Virus record (IMG/VR): IMGVR_UViG_3300003097_000006
Reading direction: 5' to 3' (one strand)
Length of the DNA stretch: 64,000 bases
Source of the DNA: a virus
Lineage: Duplodnaviria; Heunggongvirae; Uroviricota; Caudoviricetes
The translations under genes were made by a program, and so were the position numbers. The notes under the pieces were generated by a model. It was given only the letters and a program-made list of their open reading frames with translations, searched no databases and was not told the origin of the DNA. The stretch's first letter is position 1, and every line of letters starts with the position of its first letter. Shown piece by piece: positions 1 to 37,252 of this stretch.

Positions 1-293
1 CCGCCAGCATTTACACGGAAGTTCTGCATACCACGACGCAGAGAACCATACGTTGCGATGAAAGTTTTGCCCTCAGATGGGAAGATTACGTTTTTAACTA
101 CGTCAGTCATTTTCTTTTCCTGTTCAGGGATATAGTGTCGGAACTCGACAAAACGCCAAGTATTCATGTAGTGCAGTGCGAGACTTTTAGCCTCTTCGTA
201 CTGAAGGCCACTTCCAATTACGTGGCCATCTTCACCCTTGCCCATACGTCCAATGAGCATGAAACGGTATTTTGGGTCGTTAAGATTTCCCAT
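1..293 (-). CDS. gamma-glutamyl cyclotransferase (AIG2/GGCT)-like protein, partial; runs off the window start
   Basis: The minus-strand reading frame is open from the ATG at 291-293 to position 1. The translation ends ...KTFIATYGSLRRGMQNFRVNAGG, and YGSLRRG is the hallmark N-terminal motif of the AIG2/GGCT fold. An alternative internal start (MTDVV, ATG at 108-110) has an AGGAAAAG ribosome-binding site. Confidence 0.5.
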   Translation of the reverse strand, partial: MGNLNDPKYRFMLIGRMGKGEDGHVIGSGLQYEEAKSLALHYMNTWRFVEFRHYIPEQEKKMTDVVKNVIFPSEGKTFIATYGSLRRGMQNFRVNAG

Positions 294-468
294 TCACAAC
301 CTTCCTACTATTGAGACTGTTGAGCAGGTTTCTGGAAAAATTAAAGGACATTGTATCAAACACCCCTTCACCCTTAGGACCAGCTTTAACTGTTTTCTCT
401 AAGTTTTCACGGAGCTTTCGCCCATTCTCTTCCATTTGAGCTTTGTGTTTTTCATCAAACAGAGCCAC
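280..468 (-). CDS. hypothetical protein (62 aa)
   Basis: ORF from the six-frame track on the strand shared by the whole block. Lys/Glu-rich, no recognisable motif. Confidence 0.35.
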   Translation of the reverse strand: MALFDEKHKAQMEENGRKLRENLEKTVKAGPKGEGVFDTMSFNFSRNLLNSLNSRKVVNGKS

Positions 469-823
469 TTTTACCCTCCGACCAGATTGGCGACAGAGAT
501 TTCAAGAATGAAAACACTTCTTTATCGCTCTTGAAACGTTTAATACCTTTGTGACGTTGAATACCTTCACCGACCATTTGAATGTACTCAAACGCATCAT
601 CAAATGAGAAGAATTCAAACTCTTCACCGCTGTAACGGTTCTTCGTTAAACGCCAAGACAGTGTTGCATCGTAGTCACAATCAATGACGTATTCTGCAAA
701 CCGAATAAGGTCACGGTAATACCGATGGGTTAGTTCATCGGCGGCCTCTTCAAAATCACAGAAGTCATATGGCTCCTCTTCCAAGAAAGCATATAACTTA
801 CCCTGAATTACCAGAATTGTCAT
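455..823 (-). CDS. hypothetical acidic protein (122 aa)
   Basis: Minus-strand ORF tightly packed against its neighbours. No recognisable motif. Confidence 0.5.
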   Translation of the reverse strand: MTILVIQGKLYAFLEEEPYDFCDFEEAADELTHRYYRDLIRFAEYVIDCDYDATLSWRLTKNRYSGEEFEFFSFDDAFEYIQMVGEGIQRHKGIKRFKSDKEVFSFLKSLSPIWSEGKSGSV

Positions 824-875
824 GTTAAAATCGCCTTGTACGCCAACCAGGCGTCTTGACTTTTGACATACACCC

Positions 876-1160
876 TCACTTGATGCTTACAGATACATCA
901 AACACAGAGGTTGGACCATCTCCACAATTCATAATGTTACTACCAGTCATAACAACAACCTTTGTGACTTTATGTTTTGCAGCGAATGCAGCAATGGCTT
1001 CCGTTAGTGCAGTATATGAATTCACATACCCAATATCGTCACAAGACCTCATGTTTGGAGAAGTCAGGGAACAATACGGACCTTTACCGGCAATAACAGA
1101 ATCAATCAACTGCTTTTTGTTGGTTTCATTCTTCGTCACAGTAGTGAACCTCAGCAACAC
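876..1160 (-). CDS. hypothetical protein (94 aa)
   Basis: Minus-strand ORF. It overlaps the 3' end of the upstream ORF 1126..1446 by 35 nt in another frame. Confidence 0.4.
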   Translation of the reverse strand: MLLRFTTVTKNETNKKQLIDSVIAGKGPYCSLTSPNMRSCDDIGYVNSYTALTEAIAAFAAKHKVTKVVVMTGSNIMNCGDGPTSVFDVSVSIK

Positions 1161-1446
1161 GGGTCACTGATTTCTTGGTCGGGTTGATACTCGAACCTTG
1201 ATACCAGCGAGAATCAGAAGAAAGTACATGACCAACCTCTGCTTCTTCAGCAGGCAGAATGGCCACATTACAGGTTTCACCCATTGCATCTTTCATATGA
1301 CTGAAAGGGTTCAGAGAGAAACGTTCGATTTTGTTACACACAGTAACTTTACAGAGACGCTGATTCTTCAGTTCATCTTTCAGAGATGCTGCTGAACCAA
1401 ACGAAACGCCTAAACCAATTACTGCAACAAGTAAAGCCTTTTTCAT
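1126..1446 (-). CDS. hypothetical secreted protein (106 aa) with N-terminal signal peptide
   Basis: N-terminus MKKALLVAVIGLGVSFGSAAS is a typical Sec signal peptide. Confidence 0.5.
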   Translation of the reverse strand: MKKALLVAVIGLGVSFGSAASLKDELKNQRLCKVTVCNKIERFSLNPFSHMKDAMGETCNVAILPAEEAEVGHVLSSDSRWYQGSSINPTKKSVTRVAEVHYCDEE

Positions 1447-1650
1447 TTAATCATTACCTTTTCTTTTAAAGTTAGAACCTACAAGAGTCCCTCTACTTCT
1501 TATTGTGGAAGTAGATACTGAGAATTGATTTCCCGTCTTTGGATTAAAAACATCACAACTTGAAGACCAGCAATATAATATTACCAGATGTTGTCCAGTT
1601 TTACCATCCATTTTAACAACAAGCCCTGGGCACAGGAAAGTATCTTTCAT
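1447..1650 (-). CDS. hypothetical protein (67 aa)
   Basis: Minus-strand ORF abutting its neighbours. Confidence 0.4.
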   Translation of the reverse strand: MKDTFLCPGLVVKMDGKTGQHLVILYCWSSSCDVFNPKTGNQFSVSTSTIRSRGTLVGSNFKRKGND

Positions 1651-1893
1651 TCAACCTCCGAGCCACTGGCTCATTGTTTTTTCGATGTACTCACACTGAA
1701 CATCTGTTGCACCTGTAGAGAATTGTTCATGCAACATACACTCCCAGAATGGATTAAAGACCTCAATCCACGTTGTTCCGTTTGAGAAGTGTGTTCTGTA
1801 GATAACACATCCATTGTTCCAAACAGAATCAATTGCTTTCTTCAGACGTTCATTTTCCATGAGCACCTCATTATTGGCTCCAAGTTTTACCAA
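1651..1893 (-). CDS. hypothetical protein (80 aa)
   Basis: Minus-strand ORF abutting its neighbours. Confidence 0.45.
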   Translation of the reverse strand: MVKLGANNEVLMENERLKKAIDSVWNNGCVIYRTHFSNGTTWIEVFNPFWECMLHEQFSTGATDVQCEYIEKTMSQWLGG

Positions 1894-1974
1894 TTAAACT
1901 AATGTTTCAGAGACAACAGGTTGTAATTGATGTTCCTACGCATCCTGATTTCGAGTCAGGAATTGGAGACGATT

Positions 1975-2033
1975 TGGTGGAGGAGACGGGGGTCGAACCC
2001 GCACAATTAATCCTATACCGACAGGACTCCCCC
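1975..2033 (-). ncRNA. tRNA-like element of unclear identity: T-arm, 7-bp acceptor helix and encoded CCA, no canonical D-arm
   Basis: The reverse complement reads GGGGGAG-TCCTGTCGGTATAGGATTAATTGT-GCGGG-TTCGACC-CCCGT-CTCCTCC-A-CCA. The T-loop (TTCGACC), the acceptor pairing GGGGGAG/CTCCTCC and the terminal ACCA are clear, but only about 59 nt lie between the acceptor strands. Confidence 0.3.
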
Positions 2034-2117
2034 TGAATTTGGGCGAGTTTGTTTAAAGAGGGTTGACTCGCTTACCTCTCCCACACGTTCTCGGTTTGGG
2101 TTTCGAGAACTTACGCC

Positions 2118-2195
2118 TGGTGGATACTTCGGGACTCCAACCCGAGTCTCAGGACCTAAAGCCCTGCGCGCATATGCTTACATCGCCTAGTACCC
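2118..2195 (-). tRNA. atypical tRNA, anticodon UUA as folded (would read the UAA ochre codon); candidate suppressor tRNA
   Basis: The reverse complement folds as: acceptor GGGTACT/AGTATCC; D-stem GCG/CGC; anticodon stem CAGGG/TCCTG; loop CTTTAGG (U33, anticodon TTA); variable loop AGAC; T-arm TCGGG-TTGGAGT-CCCGA; discriminator A plus CCA. Atypical features are A8 and no GG in the D-loop. Confidence 0.45.
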
Positions 2196-2366
2196 GTTTA
2201 TGTTTGCAAGTCCGTGTCGTTAATACGGCTCTCCGGGCTCATGCGACCCAGCGCATTTTGTATACTCTATGCTAACTTGCTAAGTGGTGAATTGAAGCAT
2301 AATTACCGCTATACGACCACCCTTTCGGGCAGGTTGGTTCTGACCCAACGTCTCTTCAATTCAAAA

Positions 2367-2455
2367 TGGTTGGGGTGGTGGGATTTGAACCCACACTCCA
2401 CTTAAGGAGACACATTCTTAGTGTGCTGCGTACGCCTTTCCGCCACACCCCATTA
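2367..2455 (-). tRNA. type-II tRNA (Leu-like) with a long variable arm; anticodon AAG as folded
   Basis: The reverse complement has acceptor TGGGGTG/CACCCCA, D-stem GCG/CGC with loop GAAAGGCGTA, anticodon stem GCACA/TGTGT, loop CTAAGAA, variable arm CTCC-TTAAGT-GGAG, T-arm GTGGG-TTCAAAT-CCCAC and a terminal ACCA. Confidence 0.5.
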
Positions 2456-2500
2456 ATTCATATTCGACAAAGGCCACTCCGAAGAATGACCTTTAGCAAA

Positions 2501-3079
2501 TTACTCAGGCTTGGCCTTGAGTTTGACGACTCGTAACTGTTTGGTCTGAGCGGTGCGCTTGTATTCATCCAGAGAATCCGGAGATACAGTCATAGCGCCC
2601 CAACCTTCAACACGAACATTAATACGAACCATCTTATCATACAACTCCTTGATTTGTGCTGGAGTTTCAATCTTATCACCCTGTACCTGGTTAACCACAA
2701 CTACAGTTTTACCAGTGGATTTCAGACCTTTCTTCACAACACGAGCAGTTACATGATAACCAACAATTACCTCAGTTGTTTCAATGTCAAGGAATTCATC
2801 AGTCAGGTCAATAATATTGGCATCTTTACGACGACCAATATCATATACGCTGCCAACACGGAAACTATCACCAATGTCATAGACACGGATGCCAGTTAAC
2901 TGGGAGCTTGCATATGCTTCTGCACTGCCATAGTTACGAACCATATAAGAATGCTGATTAGCAGACTGACGGACGTAGTTGCTATGATAGGCATCATAGA
3001 TTGACTTTAACTGAGCGAATACATCATCTTTCTCAGTGGAGATGGACATGATGTTGCCAGAATTAACAGTGATAAACAT
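2501..3079 (-). CDS. hypothetical protein (192 aa)
   Basis: The ORF is preceded by the conserved promoter-like box at 3094-3117 and by an AAGGAAC ribosome-binding site. Confidence 0.6.
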   Translation of the reverse strand: MFITVNSGNIMSISTEKDDVFAQLKSIYDAYHSNYVRQSANQHSYMVRNYGSAEAYASSQLTGIRVYDIGDSFRVGSVYDIGRRKDANIIDLTDEFLDIETTEVIVGYHVTARVVKKGLKSTGKTVVVVNQVQGDKIETPAQIKELYDKMVRINVRVEGWGAMTVSPDSLDEYKRTAQTKQLRVVKLKAKPE

Positions 3080-3093
3080 GAGAATATAGTTCC

Positions 3094-3117
3094 TTTATAT
3101 TATGTGGATTTACTGTA
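3094..3117 (-). promoter_or_regulatory. conserved promoter-like box (GTAAATCCACATAATATAAAGGA on the minus strand) 15 nt upstream of gene 2501..3079
   Basis: It is one of four near-identical copies (3094, 16073, 29037, 34976). Each contains a TATAAT-like element and three sit directly upstream of a ribosome-binding site and start codon. Confidence 0.5.
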
Positions 3118-3136
3118 CAATCTTTGTACAGGTCTA

Positions 3137-3652
3137 TTACAGACGGGTTACTACGTTTTCGTAAGTGGTTACAGCTTTACGAGCCACTTTACCGTGCAAG
3201 CGACACCAGAAGAACTCGCCGCCGTGACGCTCAGCCATAGAGTGAGCAACAGCACGAGCCTGCTTTTCACTTTCCAGAACTACGCGAGGTGGCAGGTTTG
3301 AAGTCGGGCACCAGATGATATACTTACCTGGAACATCATCATCGTCTTTCTCTGGAATTGCTTTAGCGCCGTTAGGGCAAAGCTTCTCTTCCAGATACAT
3401 TGCAGTACCATACACCAATGTCCAACAATACTGGCGAAGCTTCTCTTTAGTTACTTCACGAGTACAGTTGAAAGTACGAATAACATTGCCATCGACGTCG
3501 AAATAAGTAACGTCGGTGCTATTAGAGTTAGCACCCGGTTTCAGTTCGATAGCACCTGCAATATTGCTACCGCGTTTAAGGAGAATTCGGTCACCGGTTT
3601 TAAATACATAGGACGGGCCACGAGCCGGAATCAGAGTGTGCTTAACGGTCAT
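3137..3652 (-). CDS. hypothetical protein (171 aa)
   Basis: Minus-strand ORF. Contains a DDDD acidic patch and no recognisable motif. Confidence 0.6.
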   Translation of the reverse strand: MTVKHTLIPARGPSYVFKTGDRILLKRGSNIAGAIELKPGANSNSTDVTYFDVDGNVIRTFNCTREVTKEKLRQYCWTLVYGTAMYLEEKLCPNGAKAIPEKDDDDVPGKYIIWCPTSNLPPRVVLESEKQARAVAHSMAERHGGEFFWCRLHGKVARKAVTTYENVVTRL

Positions 3653-3858
3653 TATTTACCTACCTTGGTAACTGCTTCGATGATGTGAGAAGGGAATGAT
3701 GCAACCAACTGCATGTTGGACTGACCTTTATCGTTCACACCGCTTTCATAGAACTTGGTGTGAGCTGGGTCAATTTGAACCATATCCGCATGAAATGTCT
3801 GAGCTCTACGGTCAACCTCAGATTTCAGGAACTCTACTTTGTACTTAACCTTTGCCAT
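3652..3858 (-). CDS. hypothetical protein (68 aa)
   Basis: Minus-strand ORF whose stop overlaps the next start. Confidence 0.5.
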   Translation of the reverse strand: MAKVKYKVEFLKSEVDRRAQTFHADMVQIDPAHTKFYESGVNDKGQSNMQLVASFPSHIIEAVTKVGK

Positions 3859-3860
3859 TG

Positions 3861-4046
3861 TTAAACCTCAACGACTGATTTGATTTGCTCTAATGGATAG
3901 AGCGCGATTGTATCATAGCGATTTTCACCACTACGAATGGTTTCTTTCTCTTTAAGAATCTGCACAGATGCAGAATCTGTCCAGAGCTTAGTGCCGTTAT
4001 GACGAACCTTCTCGTCATTGTACAGTGTTACTTCGTAGACTTTCAT
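3861..4046 (-). CDS. hypothetical protein (61 aa)
   Basis: Minus-strand ORF. Confidence 0.45.
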   Translation of the reverse strand: MKVYEVTLYNDEKVRHNGTKLWTDSASVQILKEKETIRSGENRYDTIALYPLEQIKSVVEV

Positions 4047-33187: not shown

Positions 33188-33805
33188 TTACGCCGCTTTT
33201 TTCTCTGCTTTGTTGCGCAGTTCACGGACGTTATCAGCCGCAAACATATCGCTAACAGCTTTCAGTGCCATGTTACGCAGCACGTCGATGTTAGCGCCGC
33301 TGTCAATCGCAGCCTGGATTTGAGACTGGATAGATGTACGGATTGCTTTTGCAGACTTATCCATGTCGTAGGATTTTTCAGTACGTGCCACGGTCTTTTT
33401 ATCGTGCAGCAGGGAGGTATGTTCCGCTTCGATGAAAGACTTAACAAAGGTACGGAAAGCAACCTTTTCTTCTTTCGTGGTCGCAACTTCGCCTTTTTCG
33501 GCGTTAGGTTTCCAGTTAACCACGGTGTAAGCCTTCTCTTTCTTATCAGCGGACGTGTTGTCTTTATCCAGCTTGATAGTCAGTTTAGCCATACGTGGCA
33601 GCAGGTCATTAATGACCGCCTTTTGTAACTGAGGGAAACGCTTGATAGCGTTCACGAAAAATTCAATGTTGGCCGGGTTACAGGAGTCTTTGCCCCAATA
33701 ATCAGACACAACTACTTCGAAAGACTTAACCAGACCACGGGAACCTTCACGGAAATTCTTGACGGATTCCAGAATCAGAGTTTGGGTAGCATTCAGTTTA
33801 GCCAT
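33188..33805 (-). CDS. hypothetical protein (about 205 aa); first gene of the leftward block
   Basis: ATG 33803-33805 has a GAGGTG ribosome-binding site. The track start at 33901 has no ribosome-binding site. Lys/Glu-rich, no recognisable motif. Confidence 0.55.
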   Translation of the reverse strand: MAKLNATQTLILESVKNFREGSRGLVKSFEVVVSDYWGKDSCNPANIEFFVNAIKRFPQLQKAVINDLLPRMAKLTIKLDKDNTSADKKEKAYTVVNWKPNAEKGEVATTKEEKVAFRTFVKSFIEAEHTSLLHDKKTVARTEKSYDMDKSAKAIRTSIQSQIQAAIDSGANIDVLRNMALKAVSDMFAADNVRELRNKAEKKAA

Positions 33806-34975
33806 GATAACACCTCGATAATTAACCATTTGATTTGAAGGAAGCAACGCGCTTCGGTGGATAGACCTCGCCTCATAAGATTTAAGGTCTACCCGAAACA
33901 CACTACAACCAGCCGCCGGAGAGTCCAGGAGCTGGAAGGTACAACTCTAGCCGGTATCAGCTTGACCGGCAACGCTCGACAGCTACGCTCATGACTGCAT
34001 GAGGAAACGGCTTAATCCGTTCGGTCGCTATCAATTTTGTTACACTATCCAGTAACCAGGACAATCACGCGCCTAATGGATACGGGAGGCGAGAACCTTT
34101 GCACTTTACATGATTAATTTCTTTCCCCTTTATACTCCCGACAATCAGCAATTAAACCAGTGTTATTTGATTCAGGGAAACGCCGCACACACAAAAGGCA
34201 GCGTGATAATCAAATCACCGCCGCGCTATTGTTTAACGTGGTATTGTTGTTTCCCGTTGTCGCATTCTTTGCTTAACGCTTTCGGGAGTTAGTCGCAATT
34301 AGTAGACAAACTGCACGCCTAGCTATCGCTTTCACCTTTCGGATTTTTAATCTATAGCGGCTATTCTATTCACCGCCGACCAATTCCGAGATACAGAAAA
34401 CCATGCCAATTCACCCAATCATATAGCCTGACTGCTGCTAGGTTAGAATATTGGATGCCTTGCCTACAGTGCCAGCCTGATACAGAACAGCTACACTTTC
34501 AGAAGCAAAGGGCTACGCGCTCTTAAGTTTAGTCAGTGTCTTATTGCATCGTCGGATTTTGTCTATCATCTTGCCCGACTAGCTCACCACACTACGATAA
34601 AGAATCACCAGTAAAGAGTCTACAGTTTGCCCTACCAACTGACTAGACCAGTCAGATTATAGGGTATAACTTGCAAACGGTGACGCCTCGGTACTTTGAG
34701 GAAACGCCTTGTCACCCTGGCTATCTCGCAACACGTTCGGTAAACAATTCTAAATTACCCGCCGTGTCTATCGCCTTGCCTTATTGCTTATGGCTTAATC
34801 CGCATCCCATTACAGGACGGATTATCACATTGACCAGGGGAAAATATCCATTGGCCTGATTTTTACCTTGCCATTAGGCGCTAGTCGATTCATTCCCTAG
34901 CTTTTCGGACGGCGTTAGTGATTCGCTGCCTAGTATCAGTAAAACTATGGCTATCTGATACGTTCAAATTTTATA

Positions 34976-34999
34976 CAGTAAATCCACATATAATAAGAG
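34976..34999 (+). promoter_or_regulatory. conserved promoter-like box, copy 4 (CAGTAAATCCACATATAATAAGAG), pointing rightward into ORF-free DNA
   Basis: Same box as upstream of three minus-strand genes, but here in the plus orientation. The only downstream ATG (35001) is followed by a stop after 2 codons. Confidence 0.45.
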
Positions 35000-36039
35000 A
35001 CTTACTTTATGGAATGATATTCTTAACTCATGCCGTTTTGCTTTCGGTAGCTTGCTTATATGCTCATACGTCATAACTCGCAAAGCGTTACATCGCTCAT
35101 GCCCTATCGTGTCTTATACAGTTTCGGTTACTTTGCTATTCAGCTTCACCTATCCGATACCAGGTAGCTACTTTACGTTTCCGCTTCACTATCTGATGTA
35201 AGTCACTATACAGTGTCTTTTCCGTAGTGTCTAGCTTTATTTTCACTTTTTTTCATCTGATTTTCTAGATGAAAGTGAATCGCTTAACACGTTGTCAGAT
35301 TAACCAGGATTAAAAACCTTGTCAATCCATCTAGGATAAAAATTTACCCTTTTATCGTTCGGCGTTTTGTATCGCCTCCCGATGAATTGAATATTAGAGA
35401 CTCCTGGTTTTACTTGCAAGCGTTTATTTTAAAAAAGATTAAAATAGTTACTAACTCACTGATTAATAAGGGAATTTATTTTCACTTATTTTCTACCTAT
35501 TTCATAACTCATTGATTTATAACGATTAATTCCAATCCACCAGGTTTTAAAATATGAATAAGTCTTTGACTATCACAATTCAATCTATCTTGTCTATAGG
35601 ATAAGTCTTAATAATCACCGCATGAATACAACAATGTGATAAGTCATTGATTAACATGCGATTTGTTATCCCATACGCATAAAATCTATACACTGAAAAG
35701 AGAAAAGATTAAAAGAATCAATAACATACGAATTAATCCTTATATAACAGTCGCTTATATTAAAACGTGGTATTTTCCAGCCCCTGAAATGGTAGAATCT
35801 ATCAATCAATAGTTAATCAATAGGTTTAACCGATGGAACGTGATGGATAATGAAACATCATTTCAGGACGTATGAAACGAAAGGTTAGCCATTAATGAAC
35901 CGGCGTTTTAGTTTTGTAAAATAACGGGGATGTTATAACGTAACAATATCTTTACTGTACATAATTACATGATGGATAAATCCCCAGGTTATCAGCTCAT
36001 AGCACTGTATGAATAGCCATGCTGTATGGATACCCAGTA

Positions 36040-36100
36040 TTACCAGTGTGATTATATACGTGTGAAACTATATCGTGTGGAATGATACCGTGTGGATATT
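36040..36100. repeat. three direct repeats of CGTGTGRA spaced about 15 bp apart (tacgtgtgaaact / atcgtgtggaatg / accgtgtggatat)
   Basis: Seen directly in the sequence. A candidate protein-binding array. Confidence 0.4.
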
Positions 36101-36184
36101 AATGATTAGCTAACTAACAATGATTCCCGTGTCACTGTATCAGTACACTAGTACAAGGGATTGTAATGTTATAGTGTAACAGAT

Positions 36185-36193
36185 GGGGGGGGG
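36185..36193. repeat. G9 homopolymer tract followed by the perfect 12-bp palindrome ATGTTATAACAT (36202-36213)
   Basis: Seen directly. Candidate slipped-strand or sequencing-error hotspot in non-coding DNA. Confidence 0.5.
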
Positions 36194-36622
36194 TAGTGTG
36201 ATGTTATAACATAAAGGGATTGTACTGGATGGATGTACAGCTAAGAGGCTAAGTGTTTGATATTTATAGGGAATTAGCGTATCAGCGTACTAGTGCAGAG
36301 AGGACGACCCACTTCCCCCTTTTCGTGTGCGTGTTTGACCGTACGCCTCCTATACCACCGCGTGTGAGTTCAATAATGAGGATATCCTGACTTGATATAA
36401 GGGTGTGTGAATGACCCCGCATCAATGTTCCGTGTACTTACATATCTTTATTTTATTTCTTTTCAGTGTAAAGGGTAAGATTTCCAGAAAATTTGAACTA
36501 AAGTTCATGGGCGAAGGGGAAAGGGGTTCAGGGATATTCACTATCCTTGTTTAATCCTCTTCTTATCTAACTCTTTCACTCAATTTCCCTTCTCAAAAGA
36601 GCCCGTCCTCTGTCTAAGGTAT

Positions 36623-36715
36623 GACCTCCCATCAAACGCTGATAAGAATGACATCCCATCAATCAGTGACCAATATGATATCCCATCTATCAGTGTAAAT
36701 ATGAATAGCCATCAA
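36623..36715. repeat. iteron-like array of four direct repeats of TCCCATCWATCAGTG spaced about 26-28 bp apart; candidate replication origin or regulator-binding array
   Basis: The four units read cctCCCATCAAacgctg, caTCCCATCAATCAGTG, taTCCCATCTATCAGTG and tagCCATCAATGtttt. The neighbouring sequence TTTTCAGTGTAAAG recurs at 36461 and 36729. Confidence 0.5.
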
Positions 36716-36856
36716 TGTTTTCAATCTTTTTCAGTGTAAAGTTGTAATGTTTTCTTCTTAACAGTGCTATAAGTCAATGTAGCATCTGTAAGGATATGAA
36801 TTCTATGACAGATGGGTGGAAGGTGGGAGCTACATTAGTTGAAGGAGTGATGTGTA

Positions 36857-37252
36857 ATGGCTGATAACGATAATGAACTGATTGATTCTATTATTGAAGG
36901 TCGCTCCGTCAAGACTGGACAGTTTGTCAAGGGTAATACAGCAGGTAAGGGAAGACCTAAAGGTTCGAGAAACAAAATGACTCAACGAATGTTGAATCGT
37001 GTTGCTGAACGAAGTGAAGACGGTCTGTCAATGGAAGAAATCATGATGGATATCGCCCAAGACCCTAACATGCCCGCTGAGTTAAGATTCAAAGCTGCGG
37101 CTAAAGTTTCTGACCTCGTTTATCCGAAAGCATCCTCTGTTGAAGTTAAGATGGACGAGAAAGAGAGCATGACTAAAGAACAAATTGACGCTCGACTCAA
37201 AGCTTTGCTTGCTGGCAATGTTGTTGAGACGAAGGAAGAAGACGAAGACTAA
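36857..37252 (+). CDS. putative terminase small subunit or DNA-binding packaging protein (131 aa)
   Basis: First gene of the rightward block, upstream of the large terminase. The basic segment GNTAGKGRPKGSRNKMTQRMLNRV resembles small-terminase N-termini, and the C-terminus is acidic. A GAAGGAG ribosome-binding site is present. Confidence 0.45.
   Translation: MADNDNELIDSIIEGRSVKTGQFVKGNTAGKGRPKGSRNKMTQRMLNRVAERSEDGLSMEEIMMDIAQDPNMPAELRFKAAAKVSDLVYPKASSVEVKMDEKESMTKEQIDARLKALLAGNVVETKEEDED

Follow-up and report, generated by a model that had tools for sequence, protein, structure and literature searches.

The window analysed here, a 64,000-nucleotide stretch of phage DNA, carries five units of two short sequence motifs, Box A and Box B, directly upstream of the gene for a small terminase (TerS). 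This array is real and well beyond chance, and its repeats are very probably a docking site for a protein, likeliest the packaging enzyme and otherwise a regulator of the packaging genes. The best explanation, to which we assign a probability of roughly 40%, is that the five units form a multi-site small-terminase recognition region similar to lambda cosB or to pac sites, perhaps acting as an operator as well, with a binding protein, genome-end positions and a packaging direction that we infer.

With about 90-91% identity to the Salmonella phages 7-11, SE131 and SeKF_80, the phage is a 7-11-like Moazamivirus of the Grimontviridae. The array lies in the final 240 bp of a non-coding stretch in front of the late operon, in which eight tRNAs, the large terminase TerL (38400) and the portal (39964) come after the first gene. 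The features of the region are as follows.

1-33901, - strand: minus-strand genes
33902-36856: stretch of about 3 kb with no convincing ORFs
36303-36387, + strand: non-coding block GACGACCCACTTCCCCCTTTT ... CCTCCTATACCACCGCGTG ... AATAATGAGGATATCC, directly 5' of the arrays
36411-36423, + strand: Box A copy 0, ATGACCCCGCATC, upstream of P0; 20.6 bits with a matrix from other species and genera
36460-36473, + strand: Box B, TTTTCAGTGTAAAG, 1 nt 5' of the -35-like element of P0; kept in relatives
36475-36500, + strand: P0, promoter-like GTAAGA-N16-ACTA, a pattern match to the published consensus (PMC8948821); no ORF follows
36540-36615, + strand: CT (pyrimidine-rich) tract between P0 and the main array, read from the sequence
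36621-36633, + strand: Box A copy 1, ATGACCTCCCATC; 23.1 bits, with a degenerate Box B, ACGCTGA
36648-36671, + strand: Box A copy 2, ATGACATCCCATC; 26.6 bits, with a compact Box B, TCAGTGACC, at 36663-36671
36675-36699, + strand: Box A copy 3, ATGATATCCCATC; 23.0 bits, with a compact Box B, TCAGTGTAAA, at 36690-36699
36701-36713, + strand: Box A copy 4, ATGAATAGCCATC; 17.7 bits, closest to the promoter
36728-36741, + strand: Box B, TTTTCAGTGTAAAG, 2 nt 5' of the -35 element of P1
36744-36769, + strand: P1, late promoter GTAATG-N16-GCTA, a pattern match 29 bp past the array end
36806-36828, + strand: G-rich element in the 5' UTR (..GATGGGTGGAAGGTGGGAG), conserved, containing an inverted Box A core, TGACAGATGGG
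36857, + strand: start of the late operon, whose first gene encodes 131 aa
36857-37252, + strand: gene 1, 131 aa, assigned by profile search to the PaP3/NV1 family of TerS; upstream of TerL and portal

Box A (ATGAnnTCCCATC; consensus ATGAC-N4-CATC, its conserved core also written ATGA-N2-TCCCATC) is exact at 36621, 36648 and 36675; the copy at 36701 is degenerate, a fifth lies at 36411, and all five are on the + strand. Box B has the consensus YCAGTGT, which the sequence-only reading had given as CAGTGTAAAG. Three exact matches to ATGANNTCCCATC are present in the 64-kb window (36621, 36648 and 36675, all +) and none in 100 dinucleotide-preserving shuffles; similarly, TTTTCAGTGTAAAG has two exact copies in the 64 kb (36460-36473 and 36728-36741), where 0 are expected. 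Across the units the gap from Box A to Box B ranges from 2 to 40 nt, the Box B position of copy 1 being degenerate: it is 2 nt in copies 2 and 3, yielding a unit of 27 bp, and is filled by a T-rich spacer of 14 nt at copy 4 and of 36 nt at the 36411 copy. The -35 element of P1 starts 43 bp after the start of copy 4, and a Box B-like CAGTG (36763-36767) overlaps the P1 -10 region.

The sequence-only reading had described four copies at a spacing of about 27 bp, 140 bp upstream of the first rightward gene, and its location, spacing (27/27/26 bp from copy 1 to copy 4, about 2.6 helical turns) and distance (142 bp from the end of the array to the ATG at 36857) all agree with our measurements. Its repeat unit needed revision: the 15-mer TCCCATCWATCAGTG is exact in copies 2 and 3 only, copy 1 reading TCCCATCAAACGCTG and copy 4 AGCCATCAATGTTTT at this position, the core is shifted 5', and the copy at 36411 had been missed. 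The flanking motif does occur on both sides of the array, but it starts at 36464 and 36732 rather than at 36466 and 36733.

The repeats are conserved far beyond the genus. A position matrix trained on PKM.Hi.22.6, Csa009, A24, BUCT695 and SNUABM-01, with the window excluded, ranks the five sites of the window (17.7-26.6 bits) at the top of about 128,000 positions on both strands, the next position scoring 11.9 bits. In the whole 7-11 genome (89.9 kb) the five copies take ranks 1-4 and 6 with a best score elsewhere of 13.8 bits, and TTCAGTGTA is found just three times in this complete genome. The same motif in the same orientation before the same downstream gene is present in pSal-SNUABM-01, PKM.Hi.22.6, the Cronobacter phages 009 and A24, the Proteus phage Privateer and the Aeromonas phage BUCT695, and an equivalent of copy 0 was found in 7-11, SeKF_80, SNUABM-01, PKM.Hi.22.6, Csa009 and Privateer. 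In each genome examined, the strong copies all share one orientation, toward terS. The interval from the conserved block to terS holds an array in Moazamivirus, the PKM phages, Privateervirus, Crifsvirus, Libingvirus, Lahexavirus, a Vibrio phage and metagenomic contigs, partly with altered motifs: Lahexavirus LAh_8 and two metagenomic contigs carry the variant ATGAnnnGGCATG with CCAGTGT, and the Vibrio phage a variant related to ATGAnnnGGCATG. Among more distant TerS relatives, in which a repeat array likewise stands immediately before terS and the motifs differ, one IMG/VR contig (L097) carries ATGACYYTCCCTGAA with TTTCAGYGTA, and three contigs of 82-90 kb (L098-L100) carry GCCATTCATA three to four times and then CTTTCAGAGG, with a coding gene directly upstream. 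When IMG/VR was searched for exact 14-mers, the Box A cluster was present in the three known isolates only, all other matches being single or unrelated.

Conservation in related phages had been named by the sequence-only reading as a check, and it holds for motif and orientation over several genera and only in part for the spacing, which in relatives is 26-28 bp in compact units and otherwise 14-91 bp, and in PKM.Hi.22.6 small hairpins are inserted between the Box A copies. The genera that keep the Box A motif have almost no further non-coding sequence in common, and in the wider group the nucleotide similarity of 7-11 and GAP52 is about 10% (Lavysh et al. 2022, PMC8948821). A short oriented motif kept at one genomic place in many genera and hosts argues for a phage-encoded, sequence-specific DNA-binding protein. 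The conserved motif, orientation and position give strong support to the view of the phased direct repeats as a protein-binding array. Within Moazamivirus, the segment 36460-36860 is nearly unchanged across the window, 7-11 and SeKF_80, and the sequence immediately upstream diverges. The CT tract is kept in composition, not in sequence, in SNUABM-01, PKM, Csa009, A24 and L097, and of the G-rich 5' UTR element, which is part of an inverted repeat (I4), GGGTGGAWGGTGGG is retained in PKM and A24.

Profile comparison identifies gene 1 as a homologue of TerS. Searched against the PDB, a profile built from 49 homologues matched solely the TerS proteins of NV1 (7joq, E 2.7e-5) and PaP3 (6w7t, E 2.2e-3). 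Gene 1 itself is sub-threshold for the Pfam family DUF5681, which is matched by 29 of the 49 family members, and its homologue in the Kuraviruses was assigned as TerS by HMM comparison (PMC9965538). A search with the single sequence agrees with TerS and is non-significant on its own, as is the Foldseek comparison of the low-confidence AlphaFold model (pLDDT 68) with the PDB, whose top hit is PaP3 TerS at E 0.38. The resemblance to the solved TerS structures concerns the oligomerisation core and not the DNA-binding N-terminus. We treat gene 1 as TerS on the grounds of the profile matches, the DUF5681 family and the Kuravirus assignment taken together. PaP3 TerS shows sequence-specific binding to its own cos DNA and has been proposed to recognise repetitive sub-sites (PMC7672466).

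The array also stands in a promoter context. For 7-11, eight late promoters with the consensus GTAAtg-N16-aCTA, recognised by host RNA polymerase with the phage sigma factor gp47, were mapped (Lavysh et al. 2022, PMC8948821). The orthologue of P1 was among those mapped by primer extension and is transcribed in vitro by the gp47 holoenzyme, from a template made with the forward primer GATATCCCATCTATCAGTGT and a reverse primer within gene 1 (PMC8948821). Since this forward primer lies inside repeat copy 3 (window 36677-36696), the primer positions identify the published promoter with 36744-36769 of the window. P0 is probably an additional late promoter, judged from its match to the consensus; it is conserved in seven relatives, lies outside the eight published promoters and is preceded in the window by a Box A, T-rich spacer and Box B of its own. 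The consensus is matched at five further window sites just 5' of genes (43624, 47050, 51948, 57151 and 63967), and Box A and Box B are absent from these five as well as from five validated 7-11 promoters elsewhere. A scan for sigma-70 promoters and terminators gave fewer matches than shuffled sequence and nothing informative at the array. The TGTGATGTTATA repeats, which fall outside the array region, had been proposed as late promoters (PMC4331800), a proposal superseded by the experimental consensus (PMC8948821); the repeat array is mentioned in neither of these two papers. With a published late promoter 29 bp downstream of the array and TerS as the first gene, the location points to packaging recognition or to control of the terminase operon.

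In the packaging explanation, TerS oligomers would bind the same-orientation sub-sites on concatemeric DNA, mark it as phage DNA and place TerL to cut nearby, possibly in the conserved block (36303-36387) or close to it. Packaging would then proceed rightward through terS, and the early-gene end would be packaged last and injected first. TerS bound at these sites could, in addition, reduce the expression of its own operon; repression of P1 by bound TerS is conceivable since Box B flanks the -35 element and overlaps the -10 element. Several observations lead us to favour TerS as the binding protein, namely the linkage to terS, the change of the motif with TerS, the uniqueness of the cluster, its absence from the late-promoter consensus, its location between a possible terminus and terS, which parallels lambda cosN-cosB-Nu1, and the precedent of PaP3 TerS. 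As would be expected of a small-terminase site, the array lies next to terS, its end 142 bp upstream of gene 1, and both the window and 7-11 have one such locus per genome; a cluster that is unique in each genome provides the single recognition locus that a packaging signal needs. Furthermore, the array stays with terS as the motif shifts in distant relatives, which fits a TerS gene and its site that are inherited together and co-evolve, although co-variation of TerS and motif follows phylogeny and would hold for any conserved phage protein. Some findings run counter to TerS. P0 and P1 each carry Box A, a T-rich spacer and Box B, and with the same box-spacer-box order at both promoters a purely transcriptional element would look alike. 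Kuraviruses, moreover, have a 50%-identical TerS with no such array before it; their terS follows gene 5 after 57 bp, and their terminal repeat lies 1.5 kb upstream and has different repeats.

The conserved block is our candidate for the terminus or cleavage region. Its pattern, GACCCACTTCCCCCTTTT ... CCTATACCACCGCGTG ... AATGAGGATAYCC over about 85 bp, aligns in 11 phages and contigs from Salmonella, Cronobacter, Proteus, Aeromonas and Vibrio hosts and from metagenomes. With nhmmer, the best match of the block in positions 1-4000 of phiEco32 is at 161-194, a weak match (E 0.029 for 8 kb) that would lack significance genome-wide and that ends at the boundary of the 193-bp terminal repeat. This phiEco32 repeat was determined experimentally, and a conserved core at nt 130-170 has been reported for the Kuravirus terminal repeats. 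Within the family, 'novel end types' were reported for Privateer, and for SeKF_80 redundant ends with two preferred forward-strand termini. The database records of 7-11, SE131 and SNUABM-01 are simple permutations with no duplicated ends, and that of LAh_6 was deposited as circular. As the record starts are arbitrary, the proximity of the array to a terminus is drawn from the weak phiEco32 similarity.

The main rival, which corresponds to the repressor-site option of the sequence-only reading, is that the boxes are operator or activator sites of a dedicated phage or host regulator of P0 and P1, setting the timing or level of the terminase operon with no role in packaging. Direct-repeat operator arrays near promoters are well known, and in the window, Moazamivirus, the PKM phages and Privateervirus both promoter-like sites are preceded by Box A, the T-rich spacer, Box B and the -35 element. 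Box B adjoins the -35 element, CAGTG overlaps the -10 element of P1, and A24 has its Box B at the -35 element itself; the proximal Box A is found 5' of the -35 element at a distance of 33, 41-43, 54 or 73 bp, depending on the genus, in steps of about 10-20 bp that loosely fit one helical face. However, the distances from Box A to P0 (50-67 bp) have no phase preference, the boxes occur at P0 and P1 only and not at the other late promoters, and we found no candidate regulator. The arrays and promoters also come apart in several relatives: Lahexavirus and the contigs L018 and L019 have arrays without P0, the P0 match of A24 and BUCT695 has no upstream Box A, and in the Vibrio phage Box B-like copies reach to within 26 nt of the terS start codon, too close for a promoter to fit in between. 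In addition, copies 1 and 2 are dispensable for P1 in vitro, where the gp47 holoenzyme by itself transcribes it efficiently from a template without them (PMC8948821). We consider a purely regulatory role somewhat less probable than recognition by TerS.

A stronger form of the packaging explanation, which we regard as improbable, joins the block, the Box A/B units and the two late promoters into a packaging-initiation region of the Grimontviridae in which Box B would be a strand-specific cut or nick signal. The two TTTTCAGTGTAAAG copies, 268 bp apart at 36460 and 36728, would in that case correspond to the two forward-strand termini of SeKF_80, the 'novel' ends called by PhageTerm would be accounted for, and late transcription from P0 and P1 could couple to packaging initiation, as proposed for the T7 concatemer junction. 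The nick consensus of tf and LUZ24, TACT/RTGMC, is a different site: ATGAC of Box A resembles its 3' half, and the 5' TACT is missing. An IHF site was also considered, since the 3' half of Box A, CATCAAnnnnTT, looks by eye like WATCAANNNNTTR, and was set aside because the conserved ATGAC falls outside the IHF consensus.

It is very doubtful that the repeats act in RNA, where Box A copies in a leader transcribed from P0 would control translation or stability, either by pairing with the G-rich anti-box (GAUGGG..GGUGGGAG) in the terS 5' UTR or through an RNA-binding protein. The minimum-energy fold of 36507-36870 does pair CCUCCCAU of copy 1 with GGUGGGAG and CCCAUCUAUC of copy 3 with GACAGAUGGG, and PKM and A24 retain the G-rich element, but the anti-box is not kept in Csa009 and Privateer. 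The fold is no stabler than those of shuffled sequences (z = -1.0; 17 of 100 at least as good), for which reason we gave this explanation less weight, and an Rfam scan of 33700-37000 at E <= 1 yielded no match. Moreover, the Box A upstream of P0 lies outside the transcript in question, and the validated P1 transcript begins past the array.

The sequence-only reading had also put forward an initiator-bound origin or a partition site. Partition is unlikely for a lytic phage, and initiator-bound iterons of a replication origin are poorly supported and, in our estimation, most improbable. Repeats of about 22 bp in the same orientation within a 27-bp unit do have an iteron-like form, the cumulative GC skew has its minimum near 36000 with a GC content of 33.5% at 35001-36000, and P0 with no ORF downstream recalls promoter-primed origins, of which the primary origin of T7 is one. 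The skew switch, however, coincides with the switch of the coding strand and is for this reason uninformative on replication. The array itself is not AT-rich (GC 0.40 at 36001-37000), the AT-rich stretch being about 0.9 kb away, and DnaA-box-like sites are unclustered; a supposed DnaA cluster near 36090 was reduced to one box with 1 mismatch (36091). At 27 bp the repeats do not recur at full helical turns, and in relatives the spacing takes values between 14 and 91 bp. No initiator gene was seen beside the array, whose neighbours are terS and genes for proteins of unknown function. The array tracks terS, even where a coding gene lies upstream, and neither replication genes nor the divergent junction. 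If an origin is sought here, the genus-specific TGTRATGTTATA, present four times at 35926-36208 and nearer to the AT-rich stretch, is the better candidate. Finally, functionless remnants of a tandem duplication of the promoter-upstream segment, to which the differing copy number among relatives (2-5 near P1) and the resemblance of copy 4 and the P0-upstream unit to diverged duplicates of one module might point, are excluded, as motif core and orientation are kept across genera with a matrix gap of about 6-15 bits over background, which neutral remnants would not have retained over such divergence.

The array, the block and two late promoters upstream of a PaP3-type TerS constitute a defined cis-region that makes the packaging question testable in the Grimontviridae, 7-11-like podophages with very long heads whose published ends are 'novel' or unclassifiable. 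With it, binding and packaging assays have a short DNA fragment and a candidate protein to start from, and P0 is a probable addition to the published transcription map. Packaging signals and genome ends matter for genome annotation, for the transduction risk of therapeutic Salmonella phages and for phage engineering; should the boxes turn out to be just a local operator, what is gained is a small contribution on how one operon is regulated. In the literature on 7-11, Privateer and SeKF_80, including PMC8948821 and PMC4331800, we found no earlier description of Box A and Box B, P0 or the conserved block. Set against the gp47 promoters of 7-11, P1 and P0 fit the consensus, whereas the repeat array is no part of it.

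Among known systems, lambda cosB is the nearest in arrangement, with the gpNu1 sites R3, R2 and R1 as sub-sites between cosN and the Nu1 gene and packaging running toward Nu1. As in cosB, the array lies directly 5' of terS, has repeated sub-sites and forms one locus per genome. Unlike in lambda, where R3 and R2 are inverted around an IHF site and there is no promoter within cosB, all copies here are direct and the sites flank a late promoter; the cosB sequences are unrelated to Box A and Box B, and the cut site and binder of the present region are ones that we infer. Lambda ends are cohesive, whereas those of the relatives of our phage are reported as redundant or 'novel'. The pac sites of the Bacillus phage SPP1 (pacL and pacR, bound by the TerS G1P) and of phage P1 (clustered hexamer repeats) consist of short boxes by or in terS that engage many TerS subunits. 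The SPP1 TerS-pac contacts have been described (PMC7672466). Several short repeated boxes next to terS are common to these pac sites and the array, but motifs, spacing and TerS family are unlike. In T7, the short repeats SRL and SRR lie just inside the terminal repeats, beside promoters, and are suspected of a role in concatemer processing. The likeness to them is conditional on the block at 36303-36387 marking a terminal-repeat boundary as in phiEco32, and, unlike the array, they are 7-mers, closely and irregularly spaced, that lie far away from the terminase genes. Origin iterons (pSC101, phage P1, lambda ori) are same-orientation repeats of about 20 bp with regular spacing, as here, yet the array differs from them in its spacing (27 against about 22 bp), in its linkage to terS and in having no flanking AT-rich element, DnaA-box cluster or adjacent initiator gene. 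Repeated protein-binding sub-sites beside terS are thus known, and what is new in this region is the combination of two box types in oriented units, interleaved with late promoters of a phage sigma factor and conserved family-wide.

The 1.1 kb or so between 33902 and 35000 contains no convincing ORF, and its left part is still about 92% identical to the Salmonella phages 7-11 (up to 34347) and SE131 (throughout). A segment of 120-165 bp immediately to its right (35003-35169) is missing in all four close relatives. The following kilobase, 35001-36000, is the richest in AT within the window (GC 0.335), and the cumulative GC skew is lowest at about 36000, the point at which coding passes from one strand to the other. 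Sigma-70-like promoters pointing left were also seen within 35001-36000, e.g., at 35233-35205. Together with a predicted tRNA gene near the left end, we list the following features of the window:

2118-2195, tRNA with anticodon TTA, called by ARAGORN and adjoining a tRNA-Leu
35926-36208, four copies of TGTRATGTTATA
36137-36155 and 36279-36297, 19-nt direct repeat (GTATCAGTACACTAGTACA / GTATCAGCGTACTAGTGCA), 142 bp apart
36303-36387, non-coding block of ~85 bp, common to Grimontviridae, Lahexavirus and metagenomic relatives
36806-36828, G-rich conserved element GATGGGTGGAAGGTGGGAG in the terS 5' UTR

The predicted tRNA would read the UAA stop codon and may be of the suppressor type.

The TGTRATGTTATA repeats correspond to the 'long motifs' that were earlier proposed as late promoters (PMC4331800), a proposal since superseded. 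In other genera the same place is occupied by different repeats, such as five copies of TTTACTATGGGAT in Csa009 and three of TGAATACTTATGCA in A24 (both Cronobacter phages), and we regard the TGTRATGTTATA array as a possible origin or early-regulator site.

Immediately to the left of the conserved ~85-bp block lies the 19-nt direct repeat. The best match to the block in phiEco32, although weak, ends at the boundary of the 193-bp terminal repeat of that phage, and the block may be a marker of the genome terminus. Further right, P0, the plus-strand promoter-like site at 36475-36500, is kept in seven relatives and has no ORF downstream; the sequence 3' of it begins purine-rich and continues as a CT-rich tract.

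The G-rich element is present in PKM.Hi.22.6 and A24, is not found in Csa009, and includes an inverted copy of the core of Box A, the plus-strand motif ATGAC-N4-CATC repeated upstream of terS. In PKM.Hi.22.6 (L005, 5771-5860), four small hairpins (AGTCCGAAGGACT, TTGCCGTAGGCAA, AGGCCGAAGGCCT and CTTACCAAAGGTAAG), of which three have a triloop that reads GAA or GTA, are inserted between the Box A copies, which accounts for the Box A spacing of 55-59 bp in this phage.

Short direct-repeat arrays are also located upstream of terS in distant members of the TerS family of gene 1, with unrelated repeat motifs:

L098-L100 (IMG/VR contigs), three to four copies of GCCATTCATA, about 100-170 bp upstream of terS
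PaP3 (L150), 862-1100, four copies of GGGATATTCCCC upstream of terS
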